64,000 bases of DNA from contig JBKQWF010000307.1 in assembly GCA_052139695.1 (NCBI GenBank), forward strand, positions 72,297 through 136,296, read 5' to 3'. Source of the stretch: Limisphaerales bacterium. Its GTDB lineage: Bacteria > Verrucomicrobiota > Verrucomicrobiia > Limisphaerales > Palsa-1400. A program made the translations under genes and the position numbers. The notes below the pieces were generated by a model that did not search any database, was not told the origin of the DNA, and saw only the letters and a program-made list of their open reading frames with translations. This document shows positions 17,235 to 43,416 of the stretch, in pieces (the stretch's first letter is position 1; each line of letters opens with the position of its first letter).

Positions 17235-17238
17235 AACA

Positions 17239-22964: not shown

Positions 22965-25900
22965 CTATGATTTTGTCAGCGCTTCGGCGGCGGCGGGCGT
23001 CTTGGAAAGCTGTTCGTACTGTGCGAATTTTTTCAACACGTCGGCTTGCGCGATTTCGAGCAATTCCTTGCCACGCGCCGGATTTTTGCCGGCCAGCATT
23101 TGGAAACGGCGTTCCAGGGACCAGAGGTTTTCCAACGGCAGCTTGGGAGCGGCGGAATCCAGTCTCAATCCAGGCTTGCCTTCGGCCACCCGGCGCGGGT
23201 CAAAGCGATAGAGCGGCCAATAACCCGATTCCACAGCTACTCTTTGGTGCTCCAAGCCTTGACCAAGGTCGAAGCCGTGCTCGATGCAAGGGCCATAAGC
23301 AATGATCAACGACGTGCCAGGATAGCTTTCGGCCTCTTCAAAAGCCTTCACAGTTTGAATGTCTTTGGCGCCCAAAGCCACCTGCGCGACGTAAGCCGTG
23401 CCATACGACATGGCGATCAGGCCAAGGTCCTTGCGGGCGGTGGCCTTGCCGGAGACAGCGAAGCGGGCGGCGGCCCCCAGCGGGGTCGCTTTGGATTGCT
23501 GGCCCCCGGTGTTGGAATAAACTTCTGTGTCAAGCACGAGAATATTCACGTTGGCGTTCATCGCGATGACGTGGTCCAGGCCGCCAAAACCGATATCATA
23601 CGCCCAGCCGTCTCCGCCGACGATCCAGACGGACTTGCGGACGAGGCTATCGGCCAGGGCAAAAAGCCGGGAAGCGTCCATGCCCTCGATTTTTTCCAGG
23701 CGTTGGCGCAAGTCTTTGACCCTCACCCGTTGAGCGGCAATTTCGGCCTCGTTGGTTTGCGGCGCCTTGAGCAGTTCATCGACGAAACTATCACCCAATT
23801 TCGGGGCCAGGAGGCGGGCAAGGTGCCGCGCGAAGTCGGCTTGTTTTTCCAAGCCGATTCGCTGGCCCAAGCCGTATTCGGCATTGTCCTCGAAGAGTGA
23901 ATTGGACCAGGCAGGGCCGCGTCCGTCGCCATTGACGGAGTAAGGCGTGGTCGGCAAATTGCCGCCGTAAATGGAAGAGCAGCCGGTGGCGTTGGCGATG
24001 ACAAGACGGTCGCCATACATTTGGGTCAACAATTTGAGATAAGCCGTTTCTCCACAGCCGGAGCAGGCGCCGGAGAACTCGAAGAGCGGCTCCAGGAATT
24101 GGGTGCCTTTGACGTCCGCGGCCAGGCGCGTGCGGTCGGGCAACGGCAGGTTGAGGAAGAACTCAAAATTCCGATGCTCCTGCTCGCGCAGAGGTTGGGT
24201 CGGCGCCATGTTGAGCGCCTTGCGACCGGGCTCTGTCTTCGATTTGACAGGGCAGACGGCCTCGCACAAGGTGCAGCCGGTGCAATCTTCCGGCGAAACC
24301 TGGAGCGAATACTTCGATCCTTTCCATTCCTGCGAGCGGAAATCGACCGCCTTGAAGTTGGCCGGCGATCCGTCCAGCGAACTGGCGGGATAAAACTTGG
24401 CGCGAATGGCGGCGTGCGGACAAACGAAGACGCACTTGTTGCATTGAATGCAGATCGAGGAATCCCAAACTGGAATCTCCAAAGCGATGGAGCGCTTTTC
24501 CCATTTGGCGGTGCTGGTGGGCCAGGTGCCATCAACCGGGAACGCGCTGACCGGCAGCAGATCGCCCTTGTTGGCCAGCATCGTGGCGGTGACGCGTTTG
24601 ACGAAATCCGGCGCGTGCTCCGGGATGAAGGAAACCTGGTGCGGCGCGGCGGTGACGGCGGCGGGCAACTCCACTTCGTAGAGGGCGGCCAAAGTTTGAT
24701 CGACGGCGGCGAAGTTTTGCTGGACGACGGCGTCGCCTTTTCGGCCGTACGTTTTGCGGATGGCCTTTTTGATTTGGGCAATCGCTTCCTCGCGCGGCAG
24801 GACATTGGAAATGGCGAAAAAGCACGTCTGCATGATCGTGTTGATTCGCCCGCCCATGCCTGTGGCCTTGGCCACCTGGTAGGCGTCGATCACGTAGCAG
24901 CGGAGCTTCCTGGCAATGATGGTGGCTTGCGTCTCAGCCGAGAACCGGTTCCAAACGTCCGCCGCGCCGTAAGGTGAATTGAGTAGAACGACGGCCCTTT
25001 CCGCCGCGCAGTCAAGGACGTTGTAACGGTCCAAAAAGCTCCATTGATGGCAGGCGACGAAATTGGCGCGTTTGACCAGGTAGGGCGCTTGAATGAGCTC
25101 GGGGCCGAAGCGCAAATGGGAAATGGTGACGGCGCCGGACTTCTTGGAGTCATAGACGAAGTAACCCTGGGCGTAAAGGTCTGTCTCTTCGCCGATAATC
25201 TTGATCGAATTCTTGTTCGCGCCGACCGTTCCATCCGCTCCCAGGCCAAAGAAAACGGCTCGCACGGTATTGTCGGCTTCGATATCGAAATCCGGGTCCC
25301 AGGCGAGCGACTTGTGGCTCACATCGTCAAAGATTCCGATGGTGAAATGATTCAAGGGCTTGGGCAGTCTTAACTGGTCGAAAACCGACTTGACCATCGC
25401 CGGTGTGAACTCCTTGGAAGAAAGTCCGTAACGTCCGCCGACGACCAACGTTTCCCGGCCGAACCATGCCGTATCATGTGTCTCACGCAGGGCTGTGACC
25501 ACGTCCATATAGAGCGGCTCGCCGATCGCGCCGGGTTCTTTTGTCCGATCCAGGACGGCGATTTTGCGCGTGGTTGGCGGCAGCGCTTCCAGGAATGCTT
25601 CGACCGCAAAAGGCCGATACAAGCGCACGCGGAGAACGCCGACTTTTTCGCCGTGGCGGCTGAGCCATTGCGCGGTCTGTTGCGCGGTTTCTCCGCCCGA
25701 ACCCATGATGATGATGACACGGTCGGCTTCGGGATGACCAACATAGTCAAAGAGACGGTACTTGCGTCCGGAGACGGCCGCAAAACGATCCATGGTATCT
25801 TGGACAAGGAGCGGCAGGCGCTCATAATAGGGATTGCAGGCTTCGCGGGCCTGGAAAAAGACGTCCGGGTTTTGCGCGGTGCCGCGCAGACGGGGATGGT

Positions 25901-26609
25901 CCGGCGAGAGGCCGTTGGCGCGGAAGGCCTGGATGGCCATATCGCATTCGTCCATCATTTCGCGCAATTGCTCGTCCGTCAGCACGCGGATTTTGGCCAC
26001 TTCATGCGACGTGCGAAAGCCATCGAAGAAATGGAGAAACGGCACGCGGGATTCCAGGGTCGCGGCGTGGGCGATGCAGGCCAAATCTTGCGCCTCCTGC
26101 ACGGAACCTGACGAAAGCATGGCAAAACCCGTTGACCGGCAAGCCATGACGTCGGAATGATCGCCAAAAATGGACAGCGCGTGCGTGGCCAGGCTGCGCG
26201 CGGTGACGTGCATGCAGAAGGGCAGCAATTCACCCGCGATTTTGTACATGTTCGGGATCATGAGCAACAAGCCTTGCGAGGCGGTGAAGGTGGTGCTCAA
26301 CGCTCCCGATTGCAACATGCCGTGAACGGCGCCCGCCGCGCCTGCTTCGGACTGCATTTCCACCAATTGCGGCACGGCGCCCCAAAGATTGGGACGGGCG
26401 GCCGCCGACCATTGATCGCACCATTCCGCCATCGGCGACGAGGGCGTGATGGGGTAAATCGGGATGGTCTCGCTCAACCGGTAGGCGATGGAGGCAACGG
26501 CTTCATTGCCGTCGAGCGTGGCAAATGGGCTTTCGACGAAATCGGTGGCGGCGACGGTGCGGACGCTCCGTTCATTTGCGCCGGCGATGGGAGTGGAAGA
26601 TGTATTCAT
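22965..26609 (-). CDS. nifJ: Pyruvate:ferredoxin (flavodoxin) oxidoreductase, single-polypeptide NifJ/PFOR type
   Basis: 1214 aa. Two ferredoxin-type clusters (CIQCNKCVFVCPHAAIR and CTGCTLCEAVCP), a TPP-binding region (GGDGWAYDIGFGGLDH) and the cluster-proximal GACSGCGET. The start lies 2 nt after the nuoN stop. Confidence 0.95.
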   Translation of the reverse strand: MNTSSTPIAGANERSVRTVAATDFVESPFATLDGNEAVASIAYRLSETIPIYPITPSSPMAEWCDQWSAAARPNLWGAVPQLVEMQSEAGAAGAVHGMLQSGALSTTFTASQGLLLMIPNMYKIAGELLPFCMHVTARSLATHALSIFGDHSDVMACRSTGFAMLSSGSVQEAQDLACIAHAATLESRVPFLHFFDGFRTSHEVAKIRVLTDEQLREMMDECDMAIQAFRANGLSPDHPRLRGTAQNPDVFFQAREACNPYYERLPLLVQDTMDRFAAVSGRKYRLFDYVGHPEADRVIIIMGSGGETAQQTAQWLSRHGEKVGVLRVRLYRPFAVEAFLEALPPTTRKIAVLDRTKEPGAIGEPLYMDVVTALRETHDTAWFGRETLVVGGRYGLSSKEFTPAMVKSVFDQLRLPKPLNHFTIGIFDDVSHKSLAWDPDFDIEADNTVRAVFFGLGADGTVGANKNSIKIIGEETDLYAQGYFVYDSKKSGAVTISHLRFGPELIQAPYLVKRANFVACHQWSFLDRYNVLDCAAERAVVLLNSPYGAADVWNRFSAETQATIIARKLRCYVIDAYQVAKATGMGGRINTIMQTCFFAISNVLPREEAIAQIKKAIRKTYGRKGDAVVQQNFAAVDQTLAALYEVELPAAVTAAPHQVSFIPEHAPDFVKRVTATMLANKGDLLPVSAFPVDGTWPTSTAKWEKRSIALEIPVWDSSICIQCNKCVFVCPHAAIRAKFYPASSLDGSPANFKAVDFRSQEWKGSKYSLQVSPEDCTGCTLCEAVCPVKSKTEPGRKALNMAPTQPLREQEHRNFEFFLNLPLPDRTRLAADVKGTQFLEPLFEFSGACSGCGETAYLKLLTQMYGDRLVIANATGCSSIYGGNLPTTPYSVNGDGRGPAWSNSLFEDNAEYGLGQRIGLEKQADFARHLARLLAPKLGDSFVDELLKAPQTNEAEIAAQRVRVKDLRQRLEKIEGMDASRLFALADSLVRKSVWIVGGDGWAYDIGFGGLDHVIAMNANVNILVLDTEVYSNTGGQQSKATPLGAAARFAVSGKATARKDLGLIAMSYGTAYVAQVALGAKDIQTVKAFEEAESYPGTSLIIAYGPCIEHGFDLGQGLEHQRVAVESGYWPLYRFDPRRVAEGKPGLRLDSAAPKLPLENLWSLERRFQMLAGKNPARGKELLEIAQADVLKKFAQYEQLSKTPAAAEALTKS

Positions 26610-26611
26610 AA

Positions 26612-28087
26612 TTAGAAAGGGGTGGAATTAAGGGCATGGGAAAGAATGCTGAGCAGCAAACCTGGCGCGCAGCCGAGAATAATAACAAGTCCCGCCAGCA
26701 GCACGATGGCCAATTGCGCCGAGAGCGACGGACGGAGCACGACCGCGGACGGGGACGGATCGGCGGCGTAAATCTGTTTGAGAATCTGCAAGTAATAGTA
26801 AAGAGAGACCGCGCTTGCGGCCACGGCCAGGATTACCAACCACAGCAAACCGAGGTTGGGTGCGGCCCCAACCGCCGCGGTGAAGAGGTAGAATTTTCCA
26901 AAGAACCCCGAAAGCGGCGGAATTCCCGCCAGGGACAGCATGAATACCAACATGCAGAAAGACAGCAACGGCGCGCGCCGGCTCAAGCCGGCGAAATCCG
27001 CCAAGTCGGCGCGGGCGTCGCTGTTTTCAACCACAGCGACGATCGCGAAGGAGCCGAGCACAGTCAGGGCGTAAGTGATGACGTAAAAGAGAAGCGGAGC
27101 CAGGCCGCGTTGCCCGGCCAGGAGCGCGATCATAGCGTAGCCGGCATGGGCGATGGCGGAATAAGCCAGCAAGCGTTTGACGTTGCGCTGCACAAGCGCG
27201 GCGAGATTGCCCGCCACCATTGAGACCACGGCCAGCGTGGCCAGCAGCGGCATCCAGCCCGGCAAGAAAGCTCCAAGAGACGCGCTGCCGCCGTTGCCGC
27301 CAAAGCCGGTGAGCAAAATTCTGGCCACGACAAAGAAGCCGGCAACCTTTGACCCCGAAGCAATGAAGGCCGCGATCGGCGTCGGCGCGCCTTGATAGAC
27401 ATCCGGGGCCCAAAAGTGGAACGGCGCCGCCGCCAGTTTAAAGGCAAACCCCACCAGGGTCATGACCAGCGCGACATAAAAAACAGGCTCCACCCCGCTC
27501 GATTGCAGTTTGACCGAGATCGCGCCCAGATCGATTTCTCCGGTGATGCCGTAGAGCAAACTAATCCCAAAGAGCGTGAAAGCCGCCGACATGCCGCCGA
27601 AGAGAAAGTACTTCAGCGCCGCCTCGGAGGAGGCCACGCTTGCTTTGTCCAACGCCGCCAGCGAATAAAGGCAAACACTGAGCAGTTCGAGCGCGGCGAA
27701 GATCATGAGAAGATTTTCCGAGCTGATCAGGAGCATCAGCCCCGCCGTCGCCAACAGGAGCAAAGCGAAGTATTCGCCAATGTGGGCGGTGAATTTCCTG
27801 GCGACGGGGAAAACCGCGCACACCCCGGCCAGCGCCAGCAGAACAACTTTAATGAGCTGGCTCAATGGGCTGGCGGAAAACATGGCCGCGCCCCGCGGCG
27901 GGGTGACCGCAAGAGTCAGCATGGCCGCAACGCAGGCCAGGCAAGTCAACATCCCGCAGGCCATCCAACGGTCGGTCAGGGTTTTGCGCCGTTTCAGGGC
28001 AAAATCGGCGGCCAGAACCACAAATGCCGACGCGGCGATGACCGCTTCGGGGAGCAGCAAATGGGCCCATTGGAAATCGGGACTCAT
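26612..28087 (-). CDS. nuoN: NADH-quinone oxidoreductase subunit N
   Basis: I place the start at the internal ATG at 28087 (MSPDFQWAHLLLPEAV), which overlaps the nuoM stop (ATGA). It is an antiporter-like 14-TM subunit and the last gene of the nuo cluster. Confidence 0.9.
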   Translation of the reverse strand: MSPDFQWAHLLLPEAVIAASAFVVLAADFALKRRKTLTDRWMACGMLTCLACVAAMLTLAVTPPRGAAMFSASPLSQLIKVVLLALAGVCAVFPVARKFTAHIGEYFALLLLATAGLMLLISSENLLMIFAALELLSVCLYSLAALDKASVASSEAALKYFLFGGMSAAFTLFGISLLYGITGEIDLGAISVKLQSSGVEPVFYVALVMTLVGFAFKLAAAPFHFWAPDVYQGAPTPIAAFIASGSKVAGFFVVARILLTGFGGNGGSASLGAFLPGWMPLLATLAVVSMVAGNLAALVQRNVKRLLAYSAIAHAGYAMIALLAGQRGLAPLLFYVITYALTVLGSFAIVAVVENSDARADLADFAGLSRRAPLLSFCMLVFMLSLAGIPPLSGFFGKFYLFTAAVGAAPNLGLLWLVILAVAASAVSLYYYLQILKQIYAADPSPSAVVLRPSLSAQLAIVLLAGLVIILGCAPGLLLSILSHALNSTPF

Positions 28088-29577
28088 GTGGTCACTCCTT
28101 TCCACAGAGGTTGCATGAGGGGGGAATTCAGCGCCGGTGTGATTAAATCCAGCAACAGTTTCGGATAAAGCCCGATCAACAAGGACGTGCCGAGAAGAAC
28201 GCAGGCGCCTGTTCGCTCGGCGATGGAAATGGGAGCCATGCGCGCCGGCGGAAGAGAGGCCGGTGTCGAATCCTCGGCGTAGAAGGCTTTCAGCAAAGCG
28301 CGCCAGGTGTAAGCCACGCCGATCAAAATCCCCACCCCGGCAAAAATCGTAAAGAGCGGGAAGGCTTGCCATGCCCCCACCAGCACCTGCATTTCCGCGA
28401 TAAAACCGCTGAAGCCCGGCAGCCCCATGGAGGCCGCTCCGGCAATCGCAAAGGTTGCGGCGGCAAAGGGCAAAGTCCGGTTGAGGTTAAGCCGTTGCAG
28501 CTCCGTTAAATCCCGGCTATGGGCGCGGTCATAAACCATCCGTCCCACCACCGCGAAGAGCAGGCCGGCGATGATGCCATGAGAGAACATTTGCAAAATC
28601 GCGCCGCTCAACCCGACCTGGGTCAAAGTCATAAAACCCAGCAAGACAAAGCCCATGTGGCTGACGCTGGAGTAGCCGATGACGAATTTGAAATCCCGTT
28701 GCACCAGCGCGACAGTCGCACCATAGACGATGCCGATGACCGCCAGCAGCGCAATCTCCTTGCGCCAGGTTTGCAGGCCAATCGGGAAAAGAGTCATGCC
28801 CACGCGCAAAGCCCCGTAAGCGCCCAACTTCATGACCACGCCGGCCAGCAGCATCGAAGCAGCCGTGGGCGCGGCCACGTGTCCGGTGGGCGCCCATGTG
28901 TGGAACGGCCAGAGACCCGCCAAAACGGCGAAGCCGACAAACACCAGGAGAAACGCCCATTTCTGAAAGGCCGCCGGGAACGGAAATTGCGCCAAAACAG
29001 GCAGATCAAAGGTGTGGCCACCGGCGACGACAAAAGCCGCGATCAGGCCGATCAACACCATCGCGCTGCCGATGAACGAATAAAGCACCAGTTTCATCGC
29101 GCCGTATTCGCGCCGGGTTGATCCCCAGCGGGCGATCAGAAAGTACTTTGGAATGATGGCCAGCTCGTAAAAGACGAAGAGGAGAAAAAGATCGAAACTG
29201 AGGAAGACGCCATAGATCGCGCCGATTAATCCAAGATAGAGCGCAAAGAATTCCTTGGTCCGGCTTTCGACGTTCCACGAAAACAAAATGCCGCAGACCG
29301 CGGCTATCCCGGTGAGCAGGACCAGTGTCACGCTGATGCCGTCCGCCGCGAGGTGATAGTGAATGCCAAGCTGCGGAATCCAGGCGGCATTGGCGATCTC
29401 CCACAATTGGCCGTTGACCGTCCCTCGTTCACATTCCACCGCGCCTGCTAGGGCCAGGGCCAAGCCGGCCAAGGCGGTCAGGAGGGCGATGACCCGCGCC
29501 GGGCGCGAAGCGAGCGAAGGCCACAGCATCAAAAGCAATGACCCGATGAAAGAAATGTAAATAGTCCAGGCAATCAT
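28084..29577 (-). CDS. nuoM: NADH-quinone oxidoreductase subunit M (copy 2)
   Basis: 497 aa with NuoM/ND4-type motifs (LAADGISVTLVLLTG, FLLFVFYELAIIPKYFLIARWGS). Confidence 0.9.
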   Translation of the reverse strand: MIAWTIYISFIGSLLLMLWPSLASRPARVIALLTALAGLALALAGAVECERGTVNGQLWEIANAAWIPQLGIHYHLAADGISVTLVLLTGIAAVCGILFSWNVESRTKEFFALYLGLIGAIYGVFLSFDLFLLFVFYELAIIPKYFLIARWGSTRREYGAMKLVLYSFIGSAMVLIGLIAAFVVAGGHTFDLPVLAQFPFPAAFQKWAFLLVFVGFAVLAGLWPFHTWAPTGHVAAPTAASMLLAGVVMKLGAYGALRVGMTLFPIGLQTWRKEIALLAVIGIVYGATVALVQRDFKFVIGYSSVSHMGFVLLGFMTLTQVGLSGAILQMFSHGIIAGLLFAVVGRMVYDRAHSRDLTELQRLNLNRTLPFAAATFAIAGAASMGLPGFSGFIAEMQVLVGAWQAFPLFTIFAGVGILIGVAYTWRALLKAFYAEDSTPASLPPARMAPISIAERTGACVLLGTSLLIGLYPKLLLDLITPALNSPLMQPLWKGVTT

Positions 29578-29580
29578 GGC

Positions 29581-31134
29581 TTAGAAGCTTTTCACCATTT
29601 GCAACACGGTCGGATTGGCCACGTCGATCAGGATTCGGGGGTAAATTCCCAGGATGAAAATGAGGACAATGGCGGGAGCGACGATCAACCGTTCCGCGGC
29701 TGTCAAATCCGTCCACCCCGCCCATTTTTTTGCCAGCGGACCGTTAAAAACCCGCTGCAGAATAGTCAAGACGAAAACCGCCGTAATCAGCAGGCCGAGC
29801 GTGGAAACGGGGGCCGCCCATGGCGCCAGCGGCAGGACGCCCTTGAAAATGAGAATCTCCCCGACAAACCCGCTCAGTCCCGGCAGTCCGAGCGAGGCAA
29901 AGAGCGTAATGCCCATCAGGCCATAGAAAACCGGCGCCACTTTTCCCAAGCCGCCAAAATCGTTCAGTCCGCGGTTGCCTCCGGCGCGTTGCTCGATCAA
30001 TCCCACGAAAAAGAAGAGACAGGCGGCGGTAATGCCATGATTGAACATTTGCACCATGACGCCGTTTAAAACCGCCGCTTTTTCGTCCGCCCATGACGCG
30101 CCCGGTGCGGTCAGTTGCGCGGCGGCGAATATTCCCATCAAGCAGTATCCAAGATGATTGATGGAAGAATAGGCGATAATCCGTTTCAGATCGGTTTGCG
30201 CGAAAGCTGCCGCGGCGGAGAAAACAATGGTGGCCACGGCCAGCCAGAGGAGCGGGGTTTGCATGGCGCGCATCGATTCCGGGAAGATCGGCAGGAGGAT
30301 GCGCAGGAACCCATACACTCCCATCTTCGACATCGCCCCCGTCAGGACCATCGACGTGCCGGTGGGCGCTTCGGCATAGGCGTCGGGCAGCCACGTATGA
30401 AACGGCATCAGGGGAACCTTGACGGCAAAGCCAAACAGGGCGCCGAGAAAGACGGCCCCGGCCAGCGCCTCTTTGGAGGTGAAGAGAGACCCGCCCAGCT
30501 TGGCAAAGAGCGCGGAACTAAGGCCGCCATCGCGCGCGAGGCCGGCAAGTTGTCCGAAGTCAAAGAGGCCTGTTGCGGCATAAACCGCCAGGAAAGCCAG
30601 CAGCAAGGTCACACTGCCCGCCAGCGTATAGACGAAGAACTGATAGGCCGCCGCGGTTCGGCGCGGCCCGCCCCAAATCTTAATCAGGAAGAAAGCGGGA
30701 ATGAGGCTCAATTCCCAGAAGAGAAACCAATGGACAAAATTGAGCGCGGTAAAAGTCCCAAAGAGGCCGCTTTCCAGAAAAAGGAGCAAGGAGAAATAGA
30801 GGCGGGCGTTGCGCTCCACGTTTCTTGAAGCCAGGATGGCAAAGGGAACCAAGAGCGCCGAGAGCAGCACCATCAGCATTCCGAGGCCGTCGATTCCCAA
30901 ATGATAATCGACCGCCAGAGACGGGATCCAGGCGGCGCGCTCGACAAACTGCATGCCGCCGTTGGAGCGGTCATAAGCGGTCCAAATCATCCCCGCCAAC
31001 GCGAGTGCCGCCAGGCTGACGGCCATGCCCAGGGACCGGGCCAGCTTCGGCCGGTCTGCGCGGACCGCCAACAGGCCAAGGCCGCCGACTAGCGGGATGA
31101 GCGTCAAAATCGTGAGAACAGGCAATTGGTTCAT
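29581..31134 (-). CDS. nuoM: NADH-quinone oxidoreductase subunit M-like (copy 1, divergent paralog)
   Basis: I place the start at ATG 31134 (MNQLPVLTIL), which overlaps the nuoL stop (ATGA). It has NuoM-type motifs (HLGIDGLGMLMVLLSALL, WFLFWELSLIPAFFLIKIWGG). It differs clearly from copy 2, so this is not an assembly duplicate. Confidence 0.85.
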   Translation of the reverse strand: MNQLPVLTILTLIPLVGGLGLLAVRADRPKLARSLGMAVSLAALALAGMIWTAYDRSNGGMQFVERAAWIPSLAVDYHLGIDGLGMLMVLLSALLVPFAILASRNVERNARLYFSLLLFLESGLFGTFTALNFVHWFLFWELSLIPAFFLIKIWGGPRRTAAAYQFFVYTLAGSVTLLLAFLAVYAATGLFDFGQLAGLARDGGLSSALFAKLGGSLFTSKEALAGAVFLGALFGFAVKVPLMPFHTWLPDAYAEAPTGTSMVLTGAMSKMGVYGFLRILLPIFPESMRAMQTPLLWLAVATIVFSAAAAFAQTDLKRIIAYSSINHLGYCLMGIFAAAQLTAPGASWADEKAAVLNGVMVQMFNHGITAACLFFFVGLIEQRAGGNRGLNDFGGLGKVAPVFYGLMGITLFASLGLPGLSGFVGEILIFKGVLPLAPWAAPVSTLGLLITAVFVLTILQRVFNGPLAKKWAGWTDLTAAERLIVAPAIVLIFILGIYPRILIDVANPTVLQMVKSF

Positions 31135-33140
31135 CCGCACCCCCAGATCAGCAAGAGCAACAATCCGCAAAAGCCCATGGCGATGGCGCGCAAGTAGCGT
31201 TGCGTTTGCCCGTTTTGGCAGCGGGCGGTCAGTTGGCCGGAGGCCCTCACGCCTTCGCAGCCGCCGTCGAAGCCCTGGTTGATCACAGCCTCATCCACTT
31301 TCCTGTCCACCTGTGAAATCAGCCGGGTCAAGCCGGCCACGAGTTTGACCGCGCCGCTCCAGATGGTGAGATCGAGCCAATTGGAAAAGCGGGCGAAAGC
31401 CGCGTTCAGCCGGATGACGGTGGCGTCGTAAAGTTCGTCAATAAACAATTTGCCGCGCAGCCAGGCAAAGAGGGTGGGTTGGAGCGTCTCCAATGGATCG
31501 GTCTCGCGGTGGGCCAGGGCGGCTTTGCCATAAATCCAGGCGCTGAGCCCTGCTCCGGCCAAAACGACGGCGGTGGAAAGGACCATGACCGGGATCTGGC
31601 CATCTTCCAGGAGTTTGGCCAAATCGAACGAAGCGCGCTCCCCGCTCAAATAGGAGGCGAACCACGGCCAAATCGGCGTTCCGGCAAATCCGACGATGAT
31701 GGCAAACACTGCCAGGACAGCGAGCGGAAGAGTCATCGCCGGCGGACTTTCGTGGGCATGAGCGTCGGTTTTTCCATAGAAGACGTAACAAATCTGGCGC
31801 GTCATATAAAAAGCGGTGAGAAAAGCCCCCGCGACGCCCAAGTAAAACGGAATCTGCGAAACCTGCCAGTGATGCGCCGAGTGCAAAATGGCGTCCTTGC
31901 TCCAAAAGCCCGAAAAGAACAGCGGGACACCGCAGAGGGCCATCGTCCCGACGGCATAGCAGGCGAAGGTCAGCGGCATCAGTTTTCGCAGGCCGCCCAT
32001 TTTGCGAATGTCCTGTTCGGCGTGGCAGCCGTGAATGACCGAGCCGGCGCCGAGAAAGAGCAAGGCTTTGAAGAAGGCGTGTGTTGTCAAGTGAAACATC
32101 CCCACGGAAACGCCGCCCATGCCCAAGCCCATCATCATGTATCCGAGCTGCGAAACCGTGGAATAGGCGAGAATGCGTTTGATGTCGTCTTGCGCCACCG
32201 CGACGCAGGCGGCAAAAACCGCGGTAATGGCGCCCACCCAGGTGACCACTTGAAGCGCCGCCGGATTGACCCCGGCGCTCATCAGCGGGTACATGCGGGC
32301 CACGAGAAATACGCCGGCCGCCACCATCGTGGCGGCGTGGATGAGGGCGCTCACGGGCGTTGGTCCTTCCATCGCGTCTGGAAGCCAAACGTGCAAAGGC
32401 AACTGCCCGGATTTGCCAATGGCGCCGAAGAAAATCAGGATGGAGATGGCGCCGGACAACGTCAGCCCGCCGACGGTCGTCAAGGCCGCTAACCGGGTAA
32501 GGGTCGATTGTTCCAGGACACCGTGGCCCCCGTCATAGAAAAGCAGCGTGCCGGACTGAGCGTAGAGCCAGAGCATGCCAAGAAGAAATCCCAGGTCGCC
32601 AATCCGCGTGGTGATAAACGCCTTCTTCGCCGCCGCCGCCGCGCTTGGTTTTTGATGCCAAAATCCGATCAACAAATACGAAGCCAGTCCAACCAGCTCC
32701 CAACAGATGAACAACAGCAGGAGACTGTTCGAGATGACAATGCCAAGCATGGCGGCGGCGAACAATCCAAGGAAGCAAAAGAAGCGCGCGAAATTCTCGT
32801 CCCCCGCCATGTAAGCGGTGCTGTAGATGAAGATGAGCAGGCCAATGAACGTCACGACCAACAGCATGATGGCGGTCAAGGGGTCCAGCACCCAGCCCAG
32901 TTGCAGCGAGCTGTTGCCGAAAGCGAACCACTCAAAATTCCGCGTGGCGCGCGCGAGCTCCGGTCCGTGGTGCAATGTTGCGGCAAAGGCGGCGCAGGAA
33001 AGAAGCAAAGAAAGGCCCAGGGACCCGATCGCCAAGGCGGCGGCTAGACGCCGTTGCGATGGCTTCAGCAGCGCGCCCAATGCGGCCCCGGCCAGCGGCA
33101 GGACCGGTATCAACCATAAATATTGGACAATGGCGTGCAT
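31131..33140 (-). CDS. nuoL: NADH-quinone oxidoreductase subunit L with extended C-terminal lateral-helix region
   Basis: 669 aa with a NuoL/ND5 N-terminal region (WELVGLASYLLIGFW). The C-terminal FIDELYD ... final TM segment is longer than I expect for canonical NuoL. Confidence 0.9.
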   Translation of the reverse strand: MHAIVQYLWLIPVLPLAGAALGALLKPSQRRLAAALAIGSLGLSLLLSCAAFAATLHHGPELARATRNFEWFAFGNSSLQLGWVLDPLTAIMLLVVTFIGLLIFIYSTAYMAGDENFARFFCFLGLFAAAMLGIVISNSLLLLFICWELVGLASYLLIGFWHQKPSAAAAAKKAFITTRIGDLGFLLGMLWLYAQSGTLLFYDGGHGVLEQSTLTRLAALTTVGGLTLSGAISILIFFGAIGKSGQLPLHVWLPDAMEGPTPVSALIHAATMVAAGVFLVARMYPLMSAGVNPAALQVVTWVGAITAVFAACVAVAQDDIKRILAYSTVSQLGYMMMGLGMGGVSVGMFHLTTHAFFKALLFLGAGSVIHGCHAEQDIRKMGGLRKLMPLTFACYAVGTMALCGVPLFFSGFWSKDAILHSAHHWQVSQIPFYLGVAGAFLTAFYMTRQICYVFYGKTDAHAHESPPAMTLPLAVLAVFAIIVGFAGTPIWPWFASYLSGERASFDLAKLLEDGQIPVMVLSTAVVLAGAGLSAWIYGKAALAHRETDPLETLQPTLFAWLRGKLFIDELYDATVIRLNAAFARFSNWLDLTIWSGAVKLVAGLTRLISQVDRKVDEAVINQGFDGGCEGVRASGQLTARCQNGQTQRYLRAIAMGFCGLLLLLIWGCG

Positions 33141-33143
33141 CTC

Positions 33144-33458
33144 TCAGCCTTTAAGCGTGTCGAATTGCTCGGTTTGGATGGTTTTGCGATGACGGTAAAT
33201 CGCAATCACCAGGGCCAGCCCAACGGCCGCTTCCGCCGCCGCGATGGCGATGGAAAAAAGAGCGAACATCACCCCCGTCAACGCTTGCGGATGGGGGCCA
33301 TAGCGCCAGAACGCGATAAAATTCACGTTGGCCGCGTTGAGCATCAATTCCAGGCCAATCAGAACAAGGATGGCGTTGCGGCGAAGGATGGCGCCCGCGA
33401 AACCAATGCTAAAGAGCGTCGCGCTGAAAACCAGGAAGGCAAAGAGCGGAGGGCTCAT
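33144..33458 (-). CDS. nuoK: NADH-quinone oxidoreductase subunit K
   Basis: 104 aa with 3 TM segments (LIGLELMLNAANVNFIAF). Confidence 0.9.
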   Translation of the reverse strand: MSPPLFAFLVFSATLFSIGFAGAILRRNAILVLIGLELMLNAANVNFIAFWRYGPHPQALTGVMFALFSIAIAAAEAAVGLALVIAIYRHRKTIQTEQFDTLKG

Positions 33459-34021
33459 CGCGGACTCTCCTCCAACTGGGGTTTGCGCCTCGGCAGGGAA
33501 CGGCCGGTTTTTGGCGGAGCCGTCCGCTTCTCATCCAGAGCGATGATGACGGCGCCCACCAGGGCCGCCGTCAATAACAGGCCAACCGTTTCCAAAGGCA
33601 GCGCGTAACGCGTCATCAATTCCTCTCCAATGTCTTTGACTGGCGCCGCGACGCGTTGGGGGGCGAGGCGTCGCAGGCTGGGACTGGTGAGAATCGGCAG
33701 AACCAAGCAGCCCAGCATCAATCCGGCGACGGCGATGCCGGCCAGCCAGCCCGGTGAAATCGCGGAGGCGCCTAATTTGATGTCTGCTCCCCGGGTCAGC
33801 AGAACCGTGAAAACAATCAAAATGGCGATGGCGCCGACATAGACGAGGATTTGCGCGAAGCCGACAAACTCCGCGTTGAGATCGAGGTAAATCAACGCCA
33901 GACCCGCGAACGCCGCCGCCGCGCTCAACGCGCAATGCACCAGGTTGCGCAAAGCCATCGCGCCGATGGCGCCAGCGAGCGTCAATGCGGCCAGGGGATA
34001 AAATGCAAGTTCAGACGGCAT
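33455..34021 (-). CDS. nuoJ: NADH-quinone oxidoreductase subunit J
   Basis: I place the start at the internal ATG at 34021 (MPSELAFYPLAALTLAGAIGAM). ND6-like pattern (ILVYVGAIAILIVFTVLL). It overlaps the nuoH 3' end by 11 nt. Confidence 0.85.
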   Translation of the reverse strand: MPSELAFYPLAALTLAGAIGAMALRNLVHCALSAAAAFAGLALIYLDLNAEFVGFAQILVYVGAIAILIVFTVLLTRGADIKLGASAISPGWLAGIAVAGLMLGCLVLPILTSPSLRRLAPQRVAAPVKDIGEELMTRYALPLETVGLLLTAALVGAVIIALDEKRTAPPKTGRSLPRRKPQLEESPR

Positions 34022-35204
34022 ACGAATAACGGCGCGGCGGCGCAGGCAACGGGACCAAGGCTCGGCCGAGGCAGACATAAGAAGGCACAAGAATGACCGC
34101 GCCGAGCAACCAGCGAATTTCCAACGCGCCGGCGAATGGCCAGGTTCGGCTCCAGTACCAAAGGGCCGCGACCAGCAGGTTGATCAGCGCGAGGGGCACG
34201 AGGAATTTCCAGGCGAAAGTCAGCAGCTGATCCAGGCGCAAGCGGGGCAAAGTGGCGCGGACCCAGATGAACAGAAAAATGAGCGTGCCAAACTTGGCCG
34301 CAAACCAAGCCCAGGAAGGTACCCATTCCAGGAAACGGAATGGCGCCTGCCAGCCGCCGAGGAAAAGCGTCACCGCCAGTCCGGTGACCGCGAATAGACC
34401 GAGATATTCACCGAGAAAAAAGAGGGCGTACTTGAAGCCGGAATATTCCGTCAGATAACCGGCAATCAACTCGGATTCGCCTTCCGGCAAATCGAAGGGC
34501 GAACGGTTGGATTCGGCCGTGGCGGCGATGAGAAAGAGTCCGAATGCGGCAAAGCCCCAGGGAGTTAACACGTTCCAGCGGGGCAGGCAGCCAGCGGTGT
34601 AGCCGGCTTGCGCCTGGACGATGTCGATCAAGGAAAGCGAGCCGGCGAGCATCAGGACCGGCACAGTCGAAAGCACCAAGGGAACCTCGTAGCTGATCAT
34701 TTGCGCGATCCCACGCATCGCTCCGAGCAGGGAATATTTATTTTGGCTCGACCAGCCCGCCATAAACACCGCCAGTTCCGAGGCTGAACCGATGGCAAAG
34801 AAAAAGAGAATCCCAGCGTCGAGGTCGATGGCGTTCATGTTGCGGCCAAAGGGCAACACCGCGAAGGAGAGCCAGATCGGGACCGTCAAAGTCAGGGGCG
34901 CCAGGAAATGCAAAAGTTTGTCCGCCGACAAGGGAACCATGTCCTCTTTGATCAGCATTTTGACTCCATCGGCCAGCGGCTGGAAGAGTCCGAATGGTCC
35001 GACGCGGTTTGGGCCGTAACGGTTCTGCATGCGGCCGAGGATTTTACGTTCGAGAATGGTGGTGAGGGCGAAACAGGAGCCGAACAGCGCCATGAGGGCG
35101 GCGATGATCAGCAGCATGGCCACGAGCGGACGGACGCCGGCGGGCGCCAATGCCACCAAACGATGGTGCAGAAAGACGAACAATTGATCGGCCGAGTAAG
35201 CCAT
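34011..35204 (-). CDS. nuoH: NADH-quinone oxidoreductase subunit H
   Basis: 397 aa with ND1 motifs (ERKILGRMQNRYGPNRVGPFGLFQPLADGVKM and AESNRSPFDLPEGESEL). Confidence 0.95.
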   Translation of the reverse strand: MAYSADQLFVFLHHRLVALAPAGVRPLVAMLLIIAALMALFGSCFALTTILERKILGRMQNRYGPNRVGPFGLFQPLADGVKMLIKEDMVPLSADKLLHFLAPLTLTVPIWLSFAVLPFGRNMNAIDLDAGILFFFAIGSASELAVFMAGWSSQNKYSLLGAMRGIAQMISYEVPLVLSTVPVLMLAGSLSLIDIVQAQAGYTAGCLPRWNVLTPWGFAAFGLFLIAATAESNRSPFDLPEGESELIAGYLTEYSGFKYALFFLGEYLGLFAVTGLAVTLFLGGWQAPFRFLEWVPSWAWFAAKFGTLIFLFIWVRATLPRLRLDQLLTFAWKFLVPLALINLLVAALWYWSRTWPFAGALEIRWLLGAVILVPSYVCLGRALVPLPAPPRRYSYAV

Positions 35205-35331
35205 AACCAGTGTGAGAATCGGGCATGGCCGGGGTTGCCGCTTCCCCTATTTTGGGAAAAGGTGCGCAGAATTTGCGAAGTCGCGTGCAGGGACGCCCAG
35301 AAGAAAACAATAACTACTCCCGCAAAATGAT

Positions 35332-35928
35332 TTACGCAACAACGGCTTTTTGAGGAACGGCGGCGCGCGCTTTCGCTTCCGCATCCGCTTTGGCTTTGGC
35401 TTCCGCTTTGCGCTGGGCTTCGGCGCGCCGCGCGTCGATTTCGGCGGCTTGGGTGGGATGGATCTTCTGGAAGTAAGTGTTCGGCTTGGCCAGTTGGGCC
35501 TTGTGCAGGAGCAAGCCGGCAAAACGTTCTCGCACAGCCAGCTCAAAGACGTTGTCCATCTTGATCGAGTCAAACGGACAAACCTCAACGCAAATGCCGC
35601 ATCCCATGCAAGTGGAAATATCGATGTCAAAAACCTTGGGTTGAAGCTGCATCTTGCCGAGGTAATCCGGTTTTTTGACCGCATCTTTGACAATGGAAAT
35701 GCATTGCGGGGGGCATTCCTGCTCGCAAATCGTGCAAGCCGTGCAGCGCAGCCCGCGAGCCGCGTCCTCGCCGTCATAGACCAGGAAGGGGATCGTGCGC
35801 GCGTTTTCGTCCGGGCGGAGTTTCTCTTCCGGATACTGTACGGTTGTCAACCGTTCCGGCTGGTAATAACTGCCGGCGAAATTTCGACCGGTTTCGATCA
35901 GTCCTTTAATGATGCCTGTGCCTAACAT
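35332..35928 (-). CDS. nuoI: NADH-quinone oxidoreductase subunit I (2x[4Fe-4S]) with a Lys/Ala/Glu-rich C-terminal tail
   Basis: CTACTICEQECP and CMGCGICVEVCP cluster motifs. The last roughly 45 residues are AAEIDARRAEAQRKAEAKAKADAEAKARAAVPQKAVVA. The start shares 1 nt with the nuoD stop. Confidence 0.9.
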   Translation of the reverse strand: MLGTGIIKGLIETGRNFAGSYYQPERLTTVQYPEEKLRPDENARTIPFLVYDGEDAARGLRCTACTICEQECPPQCISIVKDAVKKPDYLGKMQLQPKVFDIDISTCMGCGICVEVCPFDSIKMDNVFELAVRERFAGLLLHKAQLAKPNTYFQKIHPTQAAEIDARRAEAQRKAEAKAKADAEAKARAAVPQKAVVA

Positions 35929-37139
35929 TAGCGATCCACTTCCCCCAGGACAATATCAACACTGCCCAGGATAACCACGGCGTCGGCAATCGTATGGCCC
36001 ACGCACATGTCTTCGAGAATAGTCAAATTAATCAAGCTCGGCGGACGCACCCGGTAACGGTACGGATGAGGGCCGCCATCACTGATGAGATAAAAGCCAA
36101 GCTCGCCTTTGGGCGCTTCGATCCGGCCGTAGGCCTCGCCGGCCTTCGGCCGCAAGTTGCGCAGTTTGGCCTTCGGGTCCAGGATCGGCCCGGCGGGAAT
36201 TTCGCCCAAGGCCTGCCGGAGAATGCCGAGGCATTCCCGCGCTTCCAGGATGCGGACCATGTAGCGATCAAACACGTCGCCATGTGCGCCCAGCGGGACC
36301 CGGAACTGGAAACGGTCATAGATGCCGTACTTGTCCACTTTGCGAACATCATAATTGACGCCGCTGGCCCGGAGCATCGGGCCGGTGACGCCCGCATTCA
36401 CGGCCAATTGCGGCGGGAGCACACCCACGTTTTTCGTCCGCGCGTGCAGAATTTCATTGCCGGTGATCAACCCTTCGAATTCGTCCAGAAAGGGCTCGTA
36501 ATTTGTCGTGACCCGCCAGGCCTTATCGAGCCAGCCCTCGGGCAGATCGCAGCGGCATCCGCCAAAGCGCAGGTAATTGTACATCATGCGCGCGCCGGTG
36601 AGGGATTCGAATAAATCGAGGATTTTTTCCCGTTCGCGAAACGCATACATCATCGGTGTGCCGAGCGCGCCCATGTCCTGCAGCAAAAAGCCCGCCAGGC
36701 AAGTGTGATTGAAGAGGCGGGTCAATTCGCTGACAATGACGCGGATGTATTCGGCCCGTTCCGGGACCGCCAAACCGGTCAGTTTTTCGACGCTGAGGAC
36801 GTAGCCCCAGTTGTTTGTCATGGAGCAAATGTAGTCGAGGCGATCGGTGTAGGGAATGGAGCCGAGGTAACTTGTTTTCTCCGCGATTTTCTCATGGTTG
36901 CGGTGCAAGTAGCCGAAAACGGGCTTTAATTTGACCACCGTTTCCCCGTCGAGCACCACGTTCATGCGGAAGACGCCGTGAGTCGAAGGATGGTGCGGGC
37001 CCATCGCCACTTCCAGCAGATCGTTGGCGCCGTCGGGAGCGTCGGACGAGGACAGCGTCCAGCGCGGCTGGACCGGCATCTCCAACGTCTCCTCAGGCTG
37101 GACAGGTTCCACGCTCTCCATAACTTCAGGCACAGTCAT
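35928..37139 (-). CDS. nuoD: NADH-quinone oxidoreductase subunit D (49-kDa)
   Basis: 403 aa with MGPHHPSTHGVFRM and GYLHRNHEKIAE motifs. Confidence 0.95.
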   Translation of the reverse strand: MTVPEVMESVEPVQPEETLEMPVQPRWTLSSSDAPDGANDLLEVAMGPHHPSTHGVFRMNVVLDGETVVKLKPVFGYLHRNHEKIAEKTSYLGSIPYTDRLDYICSMTNNWGYVLSVEKLTGLAVPERAEYIRVIVSELTRLFNHTCLAGFLLQDMGALGTPMMYAFREREKILDLFESLTGARMMYNYLRFGGCRCDLPEGWLDKAWRVTTNYEPFLDEFEGLITGNEILHARTKNVGVLPPQLAVNAGVTGPMLRASGVNYDVRKVDKYGIYDRFQFRVPLGAHGDVFDRYMVRILEARECLGILRQALGEIPAGPILDPKAKLRNLRPKAGEAYGRIEAPKGELGFYLISDGGPHPYRYRVRPPSLINLTILEDMCVGHTIADAVVILGSVDIVLGEVDR

Positions 37140-37771
37140 GCCTTGGCCTCCGGTGAATGGTGGCGGCGCGCCTTTTCCAGGACATCATCATGCGGCGTAG
37201 GTTCGTATTCGTAATCGTCTGGTTCGAGATAATCCTTCCGCATCGGAAAGTCAGTAAATTCCTCCCACATCAGGAGGCGGCGCAAATCGGGATGGCCATC
37301 GAAATGAATGCCAAACAGATCGAAAACCTCGCGTTCTTGAAATTCACAACTGCGCCAAACCGGAGTCAGAGAAGGCAAGGTCACGTTATCCGAACGGTTT
37401 TGGGTGCGTAAACGGATGACGAGCGGGCCGCATTTGAGGGCCATTGAATACAGATGATAGACCGCCTCCAGATAAGCCGGCGTCTTCTTTTCCAGGACCT
37501 CCTCCACTTCCTTTTCGAGGCCGTCCACAGATTTTTTGACTTTCACTTTTTCTTTGACGATTTTTTCCGGCCAATCAACGCCGGTGACATTGGAAGCGTA
37601 ATCAAAGGCAAGGTCAGGGTCCTCCCGCAGGATTTTCGCCACGGCTAACCCATGCTCGCGGTCGATCAGGAGCGAGGATTGGCCGGAAGGACTGCCGTTG
37701 GCAATCACCTCGAGGCGCGCGCCGGGCACGGCAGTTTCGAGGCGAGCTTTAATTTGTTCGATGGGCTGCAT
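37136..37771 (-). CDS. nuoC: NADH-quinone oxidoreductase subunit C (30-kDa)
   Basis: 211 aa with EREVFDLFGIHFDGHPDLRRLLM. Confidence 0.9.
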   Translation of the reverse strand: MQPIEQIKARLETAVPGARLEVIANGSPSGQSSLLIDREHGLAVAKILREDPDLAFDYASNVTGVDWPEKIVKEKVKVKKSVDGLEKEVEEVLEKKTPAYLEAVYHLYSMALKCGPLVIRLRTQNRSDNVTLPSLTPVWRSCEFQEREVFDLFGIHFDGHPDLRRLLMWEEFTDFPMRKDYLEPDDYEYEPTPHDDVLEKARRHHSPEAKA

Positions 37772-37777
37772 CGGCTC

Positions 37778-38386
37778 TCATTTATCCGGCGCCGGGACAG
37801 GCGGCTGCCAAAGTTCGGCGTTTTTGGACGGGACCAGGTCATGTTCCCCGAAATGTGGCACCGGGACCTCGCTGGAATCCAAGTAAGGCTGGCCACCGCC
37901 TACCGTCAGACGCTGGCCCGCGATTTTCTTCTGCAACAACATCAGCCCTTCCAACAAGGCTTCCGGGCGCGGCGGACATCCGGCGATATGCACATCCACC
38001 GGGATGTAGCGATCAATGCCCTTGAGAACGTTGTAACCTTGCTTAAATGGCCCGCCGGAAATGGCGCATGCTCCCATGGCGATGACATACTTGGGCGACG
38101 GCATTTGGTTGTAAAGTCGAACTACCTGGGGCGCCATCTTCTTGGTCACGGTGCCCGCCACGATCATCAGGTCGGCTTGCCGCGGTGAGGGACGAAAGAC
38201 CTCCGCGCCAAAGCGGGCGATGTCAAATCGGGACATGGAGGCGGCGATCATTTCAATCGCGCAGCAGGCCAATCCAAATTGCAAGGGCCAGAGGGAGTTC
38301 TTGCGTCCCCAATTGTAAAGCTCCGCGAGGCTCGTCAGGACGATTCCTTGCTTGCTCAATTCATCGCGTAACTCGTTCGATTCCAC
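37778..38386 (-). CDS. nuoB: NADH-quinone oxidoreductase subunit B (N2 cluster)
   Basis: GLACCAIEM ... [11 protein letters not shown] ... IAGCPPRPE cysteine pattern. Confidence 0.95.
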
Positions 38387-38403
38387 AAATATAAGCGGTT
38401 AAA

Positions 38404-38775
38404 TTATTTCCAGGCCAAAATGCCTTTGGCGAACGCCCAGACCAGTCCTTCCGCCAGCAGCAGAATGAAAACGAGCATGGCTGCGCAAGCGCCCGCGGGC
38501 AGACCTTTGAAAGCAACGGCAAAGGGCAAAAGAAAGATCGTCTCGACATCGAAAATGAGGAAGACAATTCCATAGAGGTAATACTCCGATTTAAACTGGA
38601 CCCAGCCGGTGGGAGCCGATTCCAAACCGCACTCATAGGTGGCATTTTTGACGGAACCCGATTTATGCGGGGAAAAGACACGGGCCCAGACCCAGGCAAT
38701 GGCCAGAGGCGAGAGGGCAAAGACAAGGGCGGCCACGGCGAAAAGAGCCAAAAACTGATAAGGACCAAGATTCAT
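38404..38775 (-). CDS. nuoA: NADH-quinone oxidoreductase subunit A
   Basis: I place the start at the internal ATG at 38775 (MNLGPYQFLALFAVAALVF). ND3 motif YECGLES...FLIFDVE. Confidence 0.9.
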   Translation of the reverse strand: MNLGPYQFLALFAVAALVFALSPLAIAWVWARVFSPHKSGSVKNATYECGLESAPTGWVQFKSEYYLYGIVFLIFDVETIFLLPFAVAFKGLPAGACAAMLVFILLLAEGLVWAFAKGILAWK

Positions 38776-38795: not shown

Positions 38796-39116
38796 TTACG
38801 CGGCGCTCGCCGCCGGCAGTGGTTCCACTATGATCATCTGGGCCAGTTCGGCGCTGACCGCCAAACGCGCGTTGCAAACCAGGCAGATCAGGTTCGATTG
38901 CCGGATGAGCAGTTTAATCACTTGCTCCTCGACAAAGCCGATTTCCCGCAGATGCTGGGTGAGTTGCGGCGGGGTGGAAAGCCGCTTGATCCGCACAGCC
39001 ATGCCGGCTTTGACCCGGCTGAGCGGGCAGGTGAAAGGGCGCGCGCCGCCGCGTTCGCGAGATCGGCCCGCCGCGAGCAGCCCGGTCGGTTCTTCAAAGC
39101 ATTCCGTCATTTTCAT
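38796..39116 (-). CDS. FeoA-domain small protein
   Basis: PLSRVKAGMAVRIKRLSTPPQLTQHLREIGFVEEQVIKLL...ARLAVSAELAQMIIV fits the FeoA/DtxR-C SH3-like domain pattern. It ends 20 nt upstream of nuoA on the same strand. The start, taken at MKMTE, is uncertain. Confidence 0.65.
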   Translation of the reverse strand: MKMTECFEEPTGLLAAGRSRERGGARPFTCPLSRVKAGMAVRIKRLSTPPQLTQHLREIGFVEEQVIKLLIRQSNLICLVCNARLAVSAELAQMIIVEPLPAASAA

Positions 39117-43270: not shown

Positions 43271-43300
43271 GCGTTGGGCCGCCGCGGAGACGGTTATTCA

Positions 43301-43342: not shown

Positions 43343-43416
43343 ATCAGGGCAACAAGGGAAAATTTGAACGGTTGCTAGACAGCGTTTCGCGCATTTGGTA
43401 ATAAAATGAAAGGAAG

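Follow-up and report, generated by a model that had tools for sequence, protein, structure and literature searches.

A 2M-type complex I operon of a Limisphaerales bacterium lacks nuoEFG and ends in a pyruvate:ferredoxin oxidoreductase gene

A complex I operon with a PFOR gene at its end

We analysed a 64,000-nt stretch from a Limisphaerales bacterium, a verrucomicrobium of soil or peat (GenBank assembly GCA_052139695.1, contig JBKQWF010000307.1, positions 72,297 to 136,296 of the forward strand; hereafter the window, numbered from its first letter), which carries an operon for respiratory complex I (nuo genes) followed immediately by a gene for pyruvate:ferredoxin oxidoreductase (PFOR). Between positions 22965 and 39116, 14 consecutive genes occupy ~16 kb of the minus strand, with a feoA-like gene first and the PFOR gene last. 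Open reading frame (ORF) listing together with NCBIfam scans gave the order nuoA-B-C-D-I-H-J-K-L-M-M-N and then a nifJ-type PFOR, just as an earlier note made from the sequence had read it. The core complex I families NuoA, B, C, D, H, I, J, K, L, M and N are all present, and NuoB, D, H, K, L, M and N each exceed the cut-off of at least one NCBIfam model. The earlier note had called the system an eleven-subunit type. This is true of its 11 families; the genes number 12, and the complex is of the 2M (or NUO11+M) type described below rather than a plain 11-subunit one.

Start codons were chosen to agree with those annotated by NCBI and JGI in identical or related proteins. With these most likely starts, the spacings from the first nuo gene to PFOR run from -11 to +17 nt, the sole exception being a spacer of 127 nt between nuoI and nuoH, so that the tight packing proposed earlier is borne out. 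Along the minus strand, nuoA (38404-38775; 123 aa), which matches the NCBIfam NuoA models and is 100% identical to an NCBI Limisphaerales NuoA, is followed after 17 nt by nuoB (37778-38386; 202 aa from a GTG start; NF011394, 327 bits against a cut-off of 312) and then after 6 nt by nuoC (37136-37771; 211 aa), whose product carries a charged insertion of ~30 residues (146 residues align to 114 profile positions of TIGR01961). There is a 4-nt overlap of nuoC with nuoD (35928-37139; 403 aa; NF004739, 428 bits against 360), which encodes the quinone-site subunit, and a 1-nt overlap of nuoD with nuoI (35332-35928; 198 aa). Beyond the spacer (35205-35331), nuoH (34011-35204; 397 aa; NF004741, 339 bits against 305) overlaps nuoJ by 11 nt. 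The latter (33455-34021; 188 aa from MPSEL, with relatives of 173-189 aa; NCBIfam NuoJ models) overlaps nuoK (33144-33458; 104 aa; NF004320, 103 bits against 57) by 4 nt. A gap of 3 nt leads to nuoL (31131-33140; 669 aa; NF005141, 658 bits against 556), and nuoL overlaps nuoM1 (29581-31134; 517 aa; TIGR01972, 483 bits) by 4 nt. Another 3 nt separate nuoM1 from nuoM2 (28084-29577; 497 aa; TIGR01972, 437 bits), which overlaps nuoN (26612-28087; 491 aa; TIGR01770, 388 bits against 333; 100% identical to an NCBI Limisphaerales NuoN) by 4 nt.

The PFOR gene (22965-26609, minus strand) starts 2 nt past the nuoN stop, as had been claimed; the junction (26610-26611) reads TAA-tt-ATG. An independent Logan assembly (SRR31840415, locus L081) contains the M2-N-PFOR stretch with 100% identity and the same junction, and misassembly is therefore excluded. 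Base composition is uniform across the window. The PFOR product of 1214 aa is a single polypeptide with all POR domains, of the NifJ type, and is identified as a pyruvate:ferredoxin (flavodoxin) oxidoreductase by TIGR02176 (1727 bits against a cut-off of 911), to which it aligns end to end (residues 29-1202 on positions 1-1166 of 1167). The gene is convergent with its neighbour on the opposite strand (21502-22833).

The earlier note had named a terminator or promoter between nuoN and nifJ as a finding that would refute its reading. The gap is just 2 nt, and neither terminator-like nor promoter-like consensus matches exceed those in shuffled sequence. The genes share a strand, are minimally spaced and keep their order in L167/L171 and L169/L170 (L numbers denote the related loci compared here), as expected of a single transcription unit. 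From this arrangement we infer that the nuo genes and PFOR are almost certainly co-transcribed, and the complex and PFOR are probably translationally coupled. The feoA-like gene, 20 nt ahead of nuoA, is probably the first gene of the operon.

No match to NuoE, NuoF or NuoG was found by Pfam or NCBIfam in the operon or in any other scanned ORF of the window, in line with the earlier statement that the NADH-oxidising module (N-module) is absent. The nuoD gene runs straight into nuoI with no E, F or G gene between them, and the same holds in all related loci. A screen of the window and 173 loci (2.67 Mb) for NuoF motifs, run without a positive control, also gave no match.

A 2M complex I is defined, as conveyed by papers citing the original description (Chadwick, Hemp, Fischer & Orphan 2018, ISME J 12:2668), by a second NuoM and an insertion of ~26 residues, about one subunit width, in the amphipathic lateral helix (HL) of NuoL. 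The same architecture is named NUO11+M in the nomenclature of Degli Esposti 2015. The window operon has its extra nuoM between nuoL and nuoN, and both nuoM genes are kept in ~70 related loci. Its NuoL carries an insertion of 21-25 residues after (F/Y)IDELY, where the lateral helix starts, when aligned with three single-M NuoL sequences, and the insertion is common to all seven 2M sequences aligned. Because the second NuoM and the NuoL insertion fit the published definition, the complex is of the 2M type, without an N-module. The best solved structure for NuoL is cyanobacterial NdhF1 (6hum_F).

The quinone-reducing module looks functional, judging from its motifs. NuoB has the CC...C...CP cysteines that ligate the Fe-S cluster N2. 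NuoD has the quinone-site motifs GPHHPSTHG and RLDY and lacks the cysteines that ligate NiFe; hydrogenase models reach only E ~1e-4 in the NCBIfam scan. The best solved structures for NuoD are Thermus thermophilus Nqo4 (352 bits) and cyanobacterial NdhH (342 bits), and bacterial Nuo models outscore Ndh models for NuoD, NuoH and NuoB. NuoI contains two CxxCxxCxxxCP motifs for 4Fe-4S clusters, followed by a C-terminal tail rich in Ala, Lys and Glu. It lies on the input side and is the most divergent subunit, falling below the NCBIfam cut-off (TIGR01971, 74 bits against 113) and reaching 45-48 bits with solved NuoI structures.

The two NuoM subunits differ in the charged residues of their transmembrane (TM) helices. 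NuoM1, the canonical antiporter-like subunit, keeps the TM5 Glu, TM7 Lys, TM8 Lys and TM12 Glu, each in 67/67 orthologues. In the additional subunit NuoM2, for which orthologues were drawn from L001-L090, the TM5 Glu, TM8 Lys and TM12 Glu are conserved, and the TM7 lysine (E. coli NuoM K234) is replaced by leucine (Leu219) in 72/72 orthologues. NuoM2 also has an invariant Lys144 on TM5, six residues past the conserved Glu138, at a position where NuoM1 has Ala, Ser or Gly. Lys144 looks like a relocated lysine.

The 127-nt spacer between nuoI and nuoH occurs only in the window genome; in relatives the two genes lie at most 5 nt apart or overlap. We considered an RNA element, a repeat and a small gene as its content, and found no excess structure (z = +0.98), repeat, homologue, ORF or Rfam match.

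The nuoN-PFOR junction in relatives and its surroundings

To place the operon, all window proteins were mapped onto 80 loci from species-representative genomes (Verrucomicrobiota, Acidobacteriaceae and others), anchored on NuoN. Verrucomicrobiota and Acidobacteriaceae as a rule have the order (A-B-)C-D-I-H-J-K-L-M-M-N, and nuoI precedes nuoH in every related locus that reaches those genes. The position of nuoI and the two nuoM genes are therefore traits of the clade and not specific to this operon; the earlier description of nuoI as moved ahead of nuoH gave the order correctly, but the order is standard for the whole clade and no relocation peculiar to the window.

The PFOR gene follows nuoN on the same strand in seven other, non-identical metagenomic loci (L082, L087-L090, L170 and L171). 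In five of the seven the stop and start codons overlap as ATGA, and in the other two the gaps are 4 and 16 nt. The whole arrangement is found on two contigs, JGI Ga0374055_0024407 and the 396-kb ENA contig_31213, each with multihaem cytochrome genes and hemA on one strand and, divergent from them, the feoA-like gene, nuoABCDIHJKLMMN and PFOR on the other. The closest non-identical NuoN sequences are 66-68% identical to that of the window, and the linkage has persisted while NuoN of the subclade diverged to 61-66% identity. In a neighbour-joining tree of NuoN all linked sequences form one clade, sister to a metagenome-assembled genome of Pedosphaera, and the unlinked nuo operons of L083 and L085 are nested within it. 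The PFORs of the locus likewise form one clade by neighbour joining, with the window and L082 at its base. Since linked loci are basal in both trees, the nuoN-PFOR linkage appears to be ancestral within one Limisphaerales subclade and to have arisen once.

No sequence feature was found that separates linked from unlinked PFORs or Nuo subunits. A docking peptide was considered for the N-terminal extension of PFOR (~25 residues), and the C-terminal tail of NuoI was considered as a marker of PFOR-linked operons. The extension is also carried by unlinked PFORs, and the tail is present in all clade members, Acidobacteriaceae included, whether linked to PFOR or not.

Elsewhere in the clade the genes downstream of nuoN encode deoxyhypusine-synthase-like proteins, DUF1579 proteins, methylases and glutathione peroxidases, unrelated to redox chemistry. 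A look at other lineages for further redox partners joined to their 2M operons found none, which leaves PFOR as the sole redox enzyme found joined to an operon of the clade. In L032 and L076, from two other verrucomicrobial classes, the strand opposite the 2M operon carries a PFOR gene 1-5 kb downstream of it.

Some relatives depart from the common layout. In two Opitutaceae loci a second nuo operon that likewise lacks EFG (A-B-C-D-H-I-J-K-L...) begins ~3-4 kb downstream of the 2M one (L061, 13444-19748; L069, 14045-20527). In Chthoniobacterales/Spartobacteria the 2M operon is split (L032, L035, L037, L041, L048, L051, L057, L058 and L064), with nuoD-C-B-A divergent from nuoH-J-K-L-M-M-N and no nuoI detected between them. 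In a further split locus, L072, no EFG genes were found upstream of nuoH.

The gene that probably opens the operon (38796-39116, minus strand) encodes a small FeoA-family protein of 106 aa (Pfam FeoA, 38.7 bits against a cut-off of 23), identical to an NCBI 'FeoA family protein [Limisphaerales bacterium]'. It stands at the same position ahead of nuoA in L167 and L169. It is an orphan, with no feoB nearby, and is the most stable element of the locus, staying beside hemA. We considered it as an SH3-like subunit for ferredoxin docking, comparable to NdhS or PsaE; we rejected this role as unsupported, since the gene persists in loci without nuo (L092-L097 and L172) and even in one without nuo or PFOR (L173). 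Its AlphaFold2 model is poor (predicted local distance difference test score, pLDDT, 59).

Between hemA (plus strand) and the divergently oriented feoA-like gene lies an intergenic region (39117-39641) that is probably the promoter and regulatory region of the operon. An alignment of nine syntenic loci reveals the invariant blocks ACTACAC, CCAAAA-ATG and GGAGT, which are candidate operator or promoter elements. No Rfam family matches the region. One weak sigma-70-like match lies at 39648-39620, and such matches are no commoner than in shuffled sequence.

The operon is surrounded by hemA, multihaem cytochrome genes and PAS sensor kinases, and this neighbourhood suggests a low-oxygen respiratory setting. 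Two plus-strand gene clusters (40970-45956 and 51843-56419) encode multihaem c-type cytochromes. Among their products are a NapC/NirT-like protein, cytochrome c554, MtrC/MtrF-like domains and a fusion of a multihaem protein with a b561-type membrane domain. Synteny of the first cluster with hemA and feoA extends to eight related loci and suggests a module for anaerobic or extracellular electron transfer. Two giant sensor histidine kinases (1459 and 1387 aa) are encoded side by side on the minus strand at 12855-21402, and the second of them contains a Reg_prop/Y_Y_Y propeller and PAS domains. Towards the end of the window a tRNA cluster (62723-63930, minus strand) is adjoined by an HNH endonuclease ORF (62059-62712). 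The tRNA calls disagree: Rfam places three tRNAs at 62723-62949, where ARAGORN finds tRNA-Gln only, and ARAGORN adds tRNA-Lys and tRNA-Leu at 63777-63930.

A possible route from pyruvate to quinone

We propose, with a probability of about one half, that the operon encodes a co-expressed route that carries electrons from pyruvate through ferredoxin or flavodoxin to quinone and pumps protons. The operon would be switched on probably at low oxygen. PFOR would then oxidise pyruvate to acetyl-CoA and CO2 and reduce ferredoxin or flavodoxin, a soluble carrier whose gene would lie elsewhere in the genome. The reduced carrier would pass its electrons to the Fe-S chain of NuoI and on to cluster N2 in NuoB, and quinone would be reduced at the site formed by NuoD, NuoB and NuoH. 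The membrane arm of NuoN, NuoM2, NuoM1 and NuoL would translocate protons, perhaps at five per two electrons instead of four. We infer the donor, the forward direction and the stoichiometry from gene content and context. The linkage to PFOR is guilt by association: conserved gene order lends support to a ferredoxin-driven complex and is not proof of one.

The energetics are consistent with such a route. Menaquinone is the quinone expected in Verrucomicrobiota. By textbook midpoint potentials, two electrons passing to menaquinone (-74 mV) release ~67-82 kJ when they come from ferredoxin (about -420 to -500 mV) and ~47 kJ when they come from NADH. The former is therefore enough for ~5 H+ at 150 mV, and the latter is not. 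The route is further favoured by the divergence of NuoI on the input side, by the low-oxygen setting that the neighbourhood suggests, by PFOR being the sole redox enzyme found joined to an operon of the clade, and by the precedents in Desulfitobacterium hafniense, Synechocystis and Campylobacter jejuni described below.

The earlier note had suggested that the enzyme is fed by ferredoxin or flavodoxin reduced by PFOR rather than by NADH. The tight, ancestral and conserved junction speaks for this claim; the linkage is nonetheless dispensable, and several observations weigh against the proposal as a whole. Among the other 2M loci, PFOR lies directly downstream of nuoN in 0 of 80 (68 of which have at least 3 kb of downstream sequence). 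In the sister lineages L091 and L094-L097, whose PFORs are the closest ones lacking nuo upstream, a remnant of the 3' end of nuoN, 48-81 residues long, precedes PFOR and the rest of nuo is gone. Upstream of these remnants lie, as in the window, the feoA-like gene, hemA and a multihaem cytochrome of ~780 aa. The remnants have different end points and are, as read from these loci, scars of independent deletions of the 12-gene nuo block. In L092, L093 and L172 (the last a 2.6-Mb contig) feoA is followed directly by PFOR, without nuo, and L173 has feoA with neither. In L083-L086 and L168 the nuo operon stands at another locus, flanked by toxin-antitoxin genes and without feoA or PFOR. The nuo block has thus been deleted or relocated at least 2-3 times while PFOR stayed, and the link is fragile as well as dispensable. 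Within the window, no ferredoxin or flavodoxin gene was found among the scanned ORFs, nor, by Pfam, any docking subunit resembling NdhS, NdhV or NdhO. For the stoichiometry, NuoM2 is without the canonical TM7 lysine, so that a fifth pumped proton is not assured.

These losses bear most directly on the possibility that the adjacency is historical. PFOR would be a resident of the hemA-feoA locus, with the nuo block placed between feoA and PFOR; the genes would be co-transcribed, and the complex would use whatever donor serves it in other 2M lineages. The persistence of feoA with PFOR alone or without both, the repeated loss of the nuo block with different remnants, and the want of PFOR-linked operons among the other 2M loci all fit such a history, as does the occurrence of the PFOR extension and the NuoI tail in unlinked loci. 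Yet neutral neighbours would be expected to drift or break more uniformly, whereas the junction has remained tight (an ATGA overlap or 2-16 nt) across lineages whose NuoN proteins are 61-66% identical, and the PFOR genes near the 2M operons of L032 and L076 place the same enzyme close by in two further classes. We regard a purely historical adjacency as improbable, though less so than the other rivals.

The direction of electron flow is a separate matter. The PFOR reaction is reversible, and an extra pump subunit would serve an uphill as well as a downhill reaction. Proton-motive force could drive electrons from quinol to ferredoxin through the 2M complex, with PFOR acting as a pyruvate synthase that assimilates acetyl-CoA and CO2 into pyruvate. 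The published hypothesis for the 2M complex I of Nitrospira, as relayed by citing papers, runs in this direction, opposite to that of our proposal, and supplies ferredoxin for the pyruvate and 2-oxoglutarate:ferredoxin oxidoreductases (POR and OGOR) of the reverse tricarboxylic acid cycle. However, neither the window nor the flanking sequence of related loci showed a gene of an autotrophic pathway. The Limisphaera in culture are facultative anaerobes that use carbohydrates and whose Por is assigned to catabolism, and the multihaem cytochrome neighbours point to disposal of electrons, not to a shortage of reductant. Reverse operation is accordingly judged unlikely.

The complex could also be an ordinary NADH:quinone oxidoreductase to which NuoEFG are supplied in trans, PFOR being simply co-expressed. 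For another genome it has been suggested that a single nuoEFG set, combined with two copies of the other genes, is shared by two isozymes, and Acidobacteria that carry a 2M operon also possess a complete nuoA-N operon, both kinds being expressed in Acidobacterium capsulatum; both cases count against a dedicated ferredoxin input. Against a borrowed N-module stand the high divergence of NuoI, the subunit that contacts NuoG in canonical enzymes, and the lack of E, F or G in any operon of the clade. The NuoF motif screen points the same way and, being without a positive control, does so weakly. With menaquinone as acceptor, moreover, NADH could not drive five protons if that is the stoichiometry. 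We hold this arrangement to be quite unlikely.

A stronger version of our own proposal would dispense with the soluble carrier. PFOR might dock directly through its own ferredoxin-like domain, with two [4Fe-4S] clusters, onto the face of NuoI, NuoB and NuoC left by the absent N-module, perhaps helped by the Lys/Ala/Glu-rich tail of NuoI, and so form a membrane-bound, proton-pumping pyruvate:quinone oxidoreductase supercomplex. Such a supercomplex would explain a translationally coupled nuoN-nifJ junction. However, the want of any feature distinguishing linked PFORs or their NuoI argues against a specialised docking interface, and we consider direct docking very unlikely.

Significance and relation to known systems

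Ever since complex I-like enzymes without NuoEFG were catalogued, the electron donor of those in non-photosynthetic bacteria has been an open question, and a search for a common, genomically linked donor protein is reported to have been unsuccessful. The window operon offers a genomically linked candidate that earlier surveys of 11-subunit complexes missed, and its junction has persisted across a clade of family level whose members are abundant Verrucomicrobiota of peat and soil. If the proposed route from pyruvate to quinone is correct, oxidation of pyruvate in these bacteria would conserve more energy than the route through pyruvate dehydrogenase and NADH, with up to five protons per low-potential electron pair, and the lineage would give a defined pair of proteins on which to test whether a 2M complex has ferredoxin:quinone activity. 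Comparative work can also draw on natural 'knock-outs', since the nuo block was lost repeatedly from one locus. The interest is limited by the uncultured state of the lineages and by the dispensability of the link. In the literature searched, in which the primary 2018 paper on 2M complexes is represented by papers citing it, no description was found of PFOR as the terminal gene of a 2M operon.

Several known enzymes share parts of this arrangement. The NDH-1 complexes of cyanobacteria and plastids also lack NuoEFG and have ferredoxin as donor, and among solved structures the window NuoL is closest to their NdhF1. A path from PFOR through ferredoxin to NDH-1 has been shown physiologically in Synechocystis. 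The differences are that NdhS, NdhV, NdhO and other subunits specific to oxygenic photosynthesis were not detected in the scanned ORFs of the window, that NDH-1 has a single NdhD per complex, and that NuoD, NuoH and NuoB of the window fit bacterial Nuo models best.

The Fpo complex of Methanothrix (Methanosaeta), in its form without FpoF, is likewise a complex I homologue without an input module and is believed to take electrons straight from ferredoxin. Its FpoI has a C-terminal extension rich in lysine, which has reportedly been proposed as the docking site. Fpo is archaeal, in contrast, and has methanophenazine as acceptor, and the window subunits fall far below the NCBIfam cut-offs for Fpo (FpoD 345 against 600, FpoH 275 against 475, FpoL 455 against 1050, FpoK 102 against 145 and FpoI 44 against 180).

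In Campylobacter jejuni and Helicobacter pylori, as here, NADH is not the donor of complex I. NuoE and NuoF are replaced there by two unrelated proteins encoded in the operon, and NuoG is kept. The C. jejuni enzyme is known to be flavodoxin-dependent. Flavodoxin reduced by 2-oxoacid:acceptor oxidoreductases (POR and OOR) is reported to feed the complex in these species. Unlike the window operon, those of the two species have one NuoM and leave POR outside.

The 11-subunit enzyme of Desulfitobacterium hafniense also lacks the N-module, and PFOR with ferredoxin has been proposed as its electron source. That proposal rests on proteomic co-variation and co-expression and on rotenone sensitivity with pyruvate or lactate. 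Its operon, nuoABCDHIJKLMN, differs in having one NuoM, in the H-I order and in the absence of a linked PFOR.

The closest relatives are the 2M complexes themselves, which share with the window operon the second NuoM, the lengthened lateral helix of NuoL, the lack of nuoEFG in the operon and, as far as citing papers convey, a hypothesised ferredoxin partner. An unusual complex of this type is already on record for Acidobacterium capsulatum, whose locus belongs to the same clade. The window operon is distinguished by ending in PFOR and probably beginning with a feoA-like gene, and its host is a probable heterotroph in which forward rather than reverse electron flow is favoured. The complex is thus of a known kind and its use of ferredoxin an idea already published; what appears to be new is the gene context that PFOR provides.

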